64,000 nt of DNA from Shigella phage sb1: sequence record PQ666539; one strand, 5' to 3'. This document shows, in pieces, positions 48,292-48,387 of the stretch. The notes under the pieces were generated by a model. It had not been told where the DNA came from and did not search any database. It saw only the letters and a program-made list of their open reading frames with translations. Numbering within the stretch: position 1 is the stretch's first letter; every line of letters begins with the position of its first letter. The translations under genes and the position numbers were made by a program.

Positions 48292-48387
48292 TTTTATTTC
48301 CTTTTTAATTTAATTTAATTAACAGTTGGTGATATGACGATGTATGACCTCATAGCTGGTCAGGGAGATAATTATAATCTATTTATA
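48292..48387 (-). promoter_or_regulatory. gene 32 5' leader: AU-rich UUAAA-repeat translational operator, upstream structured (pseudoknot) region and late promoter TATAAATA
   Basis: minus-strand reads ...TATAAATAG...GACCAGCTATGAGGTCATACATCGTCATATCACC...TTAATTAAATTAAATTAAAAAGGAAATAAAAATG; corresponds to the known gp32 autoregulatory site. Confidence 0.65.

Follow-up and report, generated by a model that had tools for sequence, protein, structure and literature searches.

Binding of gp32 accompanied by repression of translation is known for both T4 and RB69 (PMC535899). In the mechanism proposed for the gene 32 operator, gp32 in excess over the available single-stranded DNA would nucleate at a 5' pseudoknot, then spread cooperatively along a UUAAA-rich tract until the Shine-Dalgarno sequence and the AUG are covered, stopping its own translation (PMC535899, PMC3014915). 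Repression is stated to require both parts, the pseudoknot as well as the UUAAA tract (PMC535899, which for the pseudoknot cites Shamoo et al. 1993 and McPheeters et al. 1988). The T2-type knot (PDB 2TPK) has an H1 of 5 bp, an H2 of 7 bp and a single-A loop 1, with U3:A20, A8 and U28 among its described features (PMC5684407, PMC4451515).

The window analysed here is a stretch of 64,000 nucleotides from Shigella phage sb1 (PQ666539), collinear from 23059 to 63999 with the Tequatrovirus genomes Ec_YwIITB1, pSs-1, sb2, sb4, KNP5 and EPIMRB01 at 93–97% identity. By alignment with T4, T2 and T6 and by the published description (PMC535899, PMC3014915), its minus-strand stretch 48292-48387 is the Tequatrovirus gene 59–gene 32 intergenic leader, holding the gp32 translational operator. 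As an element this is already known, one of the best-studied translational operators, and there is nothing new in kind about it. The stretch covers positions -96 to -1, most of the 104-nt spacer between genes 59 and 32 (48292-48395, minus strand), and adjoins the gene 32 start codon in the same layout as in relatives. Gene 59 lies directly upstream and there is no segG between the two genes, as in T2 and T6 and unlike in T4, where this homing-endonuclease gene stands upstream (PMC535899). The annotated gene 32 of relatives occupies the same place, and the intrinsic terminator hairpin that follows gene 32 coincides in position with an annotated terminator of SP1. For the comparison of leaders, 14 relatives were aligned (T4, T2, T6, SP1, sb2, five 40-kb relatives and four IMG/VR contigs). 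The collected leaders are those of Tequatrovirus; RB69, JS98 and other more distant T4-like leaders lie outside the set. Between 47250 and 48500, no Rfam covariance model came near any gathering score at E<=10, where there was sub-threshold noise, and no gene 32 leader or pseudoknot family was among the Rfam matches listed. The coordinates of the features are collected in the table.

Table 1. Features of the gene 59–gene 32 region and in-frame stops elsewhere in the window.
Feature	Coordinates	Strand	Details
Gene 59 stop codon	48398-48396	minus	
MotA box and -10	48394-48389 and 48376-48371	minus	TGCTTA, 12-nt spacer, TATAAT; kept in T2/T6-type relatives
Late-promoter consensus match	48380-48387	minus	TATAAATA; read directly; kept in relatives
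Private A->C	48364	minus	2 nt 5' of stem 1; all 14 relatives differ from the window
T2/T6-type H-type pseudoknot	48331-48362 (-40 to -71)	minus	alignment, pair counts, published architecture
Stem 1	48362-48358 with 48349-48345	minus	UGACC with GGUCA
Loop 1	48357	minus	A
Stem 2	48356-48350 with 48337-48331	minus	GCUAUGA with UCAUAUC
Loop 2	48344-48338	minus	UACAUCG
Private G->U at pseudoknot G33	48332	minus	C->A on the plus strand; G in all 14 relatives
Unstructured A/U-rich operator part	48292-48330 (-1 to -39)	minus	identical to T4 and SP1
Repeats	48322-48319, 48318-48314, 48313-48309, 48308-48302	minus	UUAA, UUAAA, UUAAA, UUAAAAA; read directly
Shine-Dalgarno	48303-48299	minus	AAGGA; read directly
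Gene 32 ATG	48291-48289	minus	makes 48292 position -1
Gene 32 (gp32 single-stranded-DNA-binding protein)	47383-48291	minus	302 codons plus stop; stop codon begins 47385
Gene 32 codon 9	48265-48267	minus	TAA (ochre), G->T on the coding strand; GAA (Glu) in all relatives
Intrinsic terminator hairpin 3' of gene 32	47342-47360	minus	GGGGACC-CGAGA-GGTCCCC, then T run
rnlA stops	39448-39446, 39295-39293, 38722-38720		codons 132, 183, 374
nrdA stops	43457-43452		codons 124, 125; two adjacent TAA
gp34 stops	51772, 51841, 52702, 54211		codons 371, 394, 681, 1184
gp35 stop	55164		codon 209
gp36 stop	56285		codon 195
Six further stops			in five small genes

Transcription of the operator would start from promoters packed into the 104-nt spacer. 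The element TATAAATA, which marks the 5' limit of 48292-48387, matches the late-promoter consensus, from which we infer that it functions as a T4-type late promoter. The minus-strand segment 48371-48394 is probably a MotA-dependent middle promoter, to judge from the T4 middle-promoter consensus; promoters of the MotA-dependent type fall outside the coverage of a sigma-70 scan. The MotA-box/-10 pair and TATAAATA overlap one another as well as the gene 59 stop codon, and the predicted promoters, the knot, the operator and the ribosome-binding site all fit into the 104 nt. A transcript from this middle promoter would begin at about the site of the private substitution at 48364.

The part of the operator next to the gene is unchanged relative to T4. 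Several UUAAA/UAAA repeats overlap the ribosome-binding site, and the tract UUAA-UUAAA-UUAAA-UUAAAAA-GGA matches T4 base for base. On the minus strand, ACCAACUG stands between the pseudoknot and the first UUAA. The 27-nt tract at 48322-48296 occurs once in the window, with 0 occurrences expected by chance (100 shuffles). Compared with the T4 operator (McPheeters, Stormo & Gold 1988; Shamoo et al. 1993), positions -46 to -1 are identical except for one G-to-U change, and the two have equally many UUAAA units, end the knot on its 3' side at -40 and, apart from that same change, agree in the sequence of stem 2. Further upstream they part company: in T4, stem 1 and loop 2 are shorter and the knot is one of 28 nt from -67 (PMC3014915). 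The 32-nt knot has the same sequence as that of T2 and T6 but for one base (PMC5684407, PMC4451515); stem 1 with its 5 bp, both loops (a single A and 7 nt) and the 5' strand of stem 2 all agree. The A/U tract has one extra 5-nt UUAAA unit. The number of these units in the window equals that in T4 and SP1; T2, T6 and the five nearest relatives have one fewer, and such variation among close relatives is probably a slippage polymorphism. Judged by this alignment, the leader is a natural mosaic in which a T2/T6-type knot has been joined to a T4-length A/U tract, and SP1 carries the same mosaic. In RB69, too, a 5' pseudoknot precedes an unstructured UUAAA/UUAA tract that covers the ribosome-binding site, but the operator differs in its sequence and in the footprint of gp32 (PMC535899). 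The aligned leaders of T2, T4 and T6 are far closer to the window than is that of RB69, which was compared through this published description.

The sequence-only reading had taken the stretch for the gp32 autoregulatory leader, with UUAAA repeats beside the Shine-Dalgarno sequence and a structured segment upstream, and had called it intact. The identification agrees with the T4, T2 and T6 alignment and with the published operators (PMC535899, PMC3014915). The repeats can be read directly, in a segment that is the same as T4 from -1 to -39, and the structured segment is present at 48362-48331, homologous to the T2/T4/T6 pseudoknot and aligning with the gene 32 knot of T2 and T6. Stem 1 can form: UGACC and GGUCA are unchanged, all cells (100%) are paired in the alignment, and the hairpin has a predicted energy of -6.3 kcal/mol. 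The covariation score is 0 because the stems are invariant among the collected Tequatrovirus leaders, which are too alike; the stem 1 indels between T4- and T2-type leaders are misaligned. The word intact thus holds for the A/U tract and for stem 1, but it fails at 48332 and 48364, two substitutions private to the window, the first of which breaks a pair in stem 2.

At these two bases the window alone differs from all 14 aligned relatives. At 48332, G33 of the pseudoknot has become U, so that the C10-G33 pair (C10 at 48355) is replaced by a C.U mismatch and stem 2 has UCAUAUC as its 3' strand where relatives have UCAUAGC. The full 7-bp stem 2 (GCUAUGA/UCAUAGC) is consequently missing from the window, in which C10.U33 is the sole non-pair among the 63 cells of the alignment pair count, and no compensating change was found in the 5' strand of stem 2. 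Nearest-neighbour energies put the stem-2 hairpin at -1.6 kcal/mol, compared with -8.3 before the change, and the stem-2 duplex at -2.6, compared with -7.8; this estimate for the pseudoknot includes nested nearest-neighbour terms only. Structure prediction speaks against an intact leader as well: the minimum-energy nested fold shifts from one based on stem 2 to one that retains only stem 1, and shuffling the 86-nt leader as written gives sequences that fold about as well (z = -0.77). At 48364, two positions 5' of stem 1, the window has C and not A, a change that creates no new pair. A-to-C changes number 40 in the window, against 8-33 in other genomes, and half of them are non-silent; the class is weakly elevated. 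The leader is 72/74 identical to at least 353 phage records (blastn, 356 records with the leader), and since 72/74 was also the best score among the 356, no otherwise identical record shares the change at 48332 or that at 48364.

An exact 20-mer spanning the stem-2 variant was absent from viral contigs. Elsewhere it matched two metagenome contigs, a Gallionella MAG and a Streptomyces genome, but these four hits were rejected as chance, since about one chance match is expected in 596 Gb and none of the four showed BLAST similarity to the window. Chance hits of this kind arise whenever very large collections are scanned for exact 20-mers, and a similarity check is needed before such hits are used.

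Could the leader be functional despite both substitutions? The C.U mismatch lies near the distal end of stem 2, where it might be tolerated, with gp32 still nucleating. Stem 1, loops 1 and 2, five contiguous pairs on the junction side of stem 2 and the A/U tract are all unchanged, the residual 5-bp stem 2 might fold with coaxial stacking and Mg2+, and the RB69 operator has diverged and yet is repressed (PMC535899). On the other hand, C10-G33 is invariant in T4-, T2- and T6-type leaders and across 356 records. The mismatch cuts off the G9-C34 pair at the end of the stem, which is reduced to four A-U pairs plus one G-C pair, at the predicted cost in stem-2 energy given above, and PMC535899 reports that repression needs the pseudoknot. 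A working leader that carries both changes is thus unlikely, though it retains some credibility.

The coding region downstream is hit as well. The gene 32 frame as written ends at codon 9, so that no full-length, cooperative gp32 is encoded behind the leader. The TAA at this codon was found in 0 of 650 records, for which the best match was 65/66. Five more private missense changes affect gp32 (W32L, K68N, A249S, K258T and D297E), all of them at positions that are invariant in the 14 relatives. Most likely, the stop at codon 9 is an error in the record.

How much of the window is affected? When the annotated genes of the closest relative were mapped onto the window and substitution-only contexts were considered, at least 18 in-frame stops were found in 40 kb. 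TAA, TAG and TGA all occur, in essential and non-essential genes alike. Sixteen of the 18 are single-base G-to-T or C-to-A changes (the other two being CAA to TAA and TCG to TAA); the G:C-to-T:A stops were made from GAA, GAG or GGA, giving TAA, TAG or TGA, or from TAC or TCA, giving TAA. The same class of change is in excess among the private substitutions, defined as those at sites where five relatives agree and the focal genome differs (39,131 sites compared, window 23059-63999). C>A/G>T accounts for 175 of the 530 private substitutions in the window (33%), compared with 23/312, 8/138, 16/208 and 37/502 (6–8%) in four clean relatives. The class hits about 1.2% of G:C sites and is evenly spread over the 40 kb and over both strands. 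It shows no marked preference for any trinucleotide, and the window has few private indels.

Of the private C>A changes in coding sequence, 117 are missense, 13 are nonsense and 16 are silent (89% non-silent), with counts of 57/55/34 over the three codon positions. Private T>C changes, by contrast, are silent in 110 cases and missense in 19 (85% silent), with 106 at third positions. The G:C-to-T:A class has therefore not been filtered by selection, whereas the transitions in the window look like ordinary evolved divergence. Given stops in gp32, gp34, gp35 and gp36, and given that no one suppressor covers all of TAA, TAG and TGA, the best reading is that the record contains errors, damage or alterations. 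The sequence as written cannot be that of a viable, plaque-forming phage.

We thus consider it most likely, with a probability of roughly 0.8, that this is the known gene 32 operator, and that its G-to-T lesions and the stop at codon 9 are errors or damage in the record and not features of a living phage. The copy as written is damaged three times, by the G-to-U change in stem 2, by the A-to-C change upstream of stem 1 and by the change of codon 9 from GAA to TAA. Of these, G33U and the E9 ochre belong to the unselected G:C-to-T:A class. Candidate sources are artefacts of the G:C-to-T:A type that follows oxidative damage, a poor consensus, or changes, perhaps deliberate, introduced afterwards. 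G:C-to-T:A is the signature of 8-oxoguanine (PMC3616734); however, oxidative artefacts are normally of low allele fraction (PMC3616734) and should enter a consensus only if coverage was very low. Errors of the Nanopore type are an unlikely cause, since there are few private indels and no sequence-context motif. A natural mutator lineage was rejected because 89% of the C>A changes are non-silent and stops occur in essential genes. If the record is at fault, operator and gene 32 would both be normal in the real phage.

The sequence-only reading had supposed that a nonsense codon at codon 9, if real, would leave the operator constitutively derepressed. The record would in that case be a faithful copy of a genuine gene 32 ochre mutant, in which the operator is never occupied, translation is constitutive and the product is a peptide of 8 residues. 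The TAA is indeed present and unambiguous in the sequence, and gene 32 nonsense mutants are a classical case of derepression. It was reportedly described by Krisch, Bolle and Epstein in 1974 and by Gold and colleagues in 1976, and Russel and colleagues are said to have found a loss of autogenous repression in gene 32 mutants in 1976; PMC3014915 and PMC535899 cite this work. As a real genotype, however, the codon most likely fails, given the 18 or more stops and the unselected class to which its substitution belongs. Gene 32 is essential, other TAA, TAG and TGA stops are found in the same 40 kb that no single suppressor host could rescue together, and the codon is missing from all 650 records. 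A true ochre mutant is accordingly very improbable, and the question of its derepression is most likely moot.

It is harder still to credit that G33U and the E9 ochre are both genuine and linked, as they would be in a natural or laboratory lineage with a weakened operator and a null repressor, kept by complementation (co-infection or a helper) or as packaged dead DNA after heavy G:C-to-T:A mutagenesis of the 8-oxoguanine type. Renewed initiation at codon 14, an in-frame AUG (48252-48250), yielding a non-cooperative gp32 that lacks residues 1-13 and does not autoregulate, has next to no chance of being correct: a 289-codon open reading frame does begin at Met14, 12 nt past the TAA, and reinitiation after early nonsense codons is established knowledge for T4 rIIB, but no Shine-Dalgarno sequence precedes AUG14 (CUCGCUGCGCAAAUG), and the restart requires a real TAA, against which the error load argues.

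Other irregularities were noted in the window and in one of its relatives. Many genes of Shigella phage sb4 (PQ666542.1) are annotated in pieces (alt in four, RNA ligase in three, and DNA ligase, td and motA in two each), and C>A (93/381) and T>A (78/381) are over-represented among its private changes; sb4 looks like another low-quality Tequatrovirus record. In the window, the frames at 40937-41510 and 61621-62008 have lengths of 574 and 388 nt compared with 570 and 387 nt in the closest relative, differences not divisible by three that suggest frameshifts. The first of these lies in nrdB, a single 1179-nt gene in pSs-1 but two pieces in Ec_YwIITB1. At frd (45656-46031), gp36 (55718-56374) and pseT (36059-36967), divergence from the closest relative has local peaks of 9–16%, against 2–4% elsewhere. 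These peaks suggest mosaic exchange with other T-even lineages.

What does the damaged copy imply for gene 32 regulation and for the use of such records? If the TAA at codon 9 were real, autogenous repression would be lost, as classically expected, and the weakened pseudoknot would add a defect in cis. If translation were restarted at Met14, the product would lack the basic N-terminal cooperativity region. Single-base "mutant phenotypes" in this window, such as the gene 32 ochre, the tail-fibre stops and the double stop in nrdA, are probable artefacts until they are confirmed in reads. The leader itself illustrates that a regulatory element described as intact needs a base-by-base check against its relatives, since here stem 2 loses most of its predicted stability through a single substitution.
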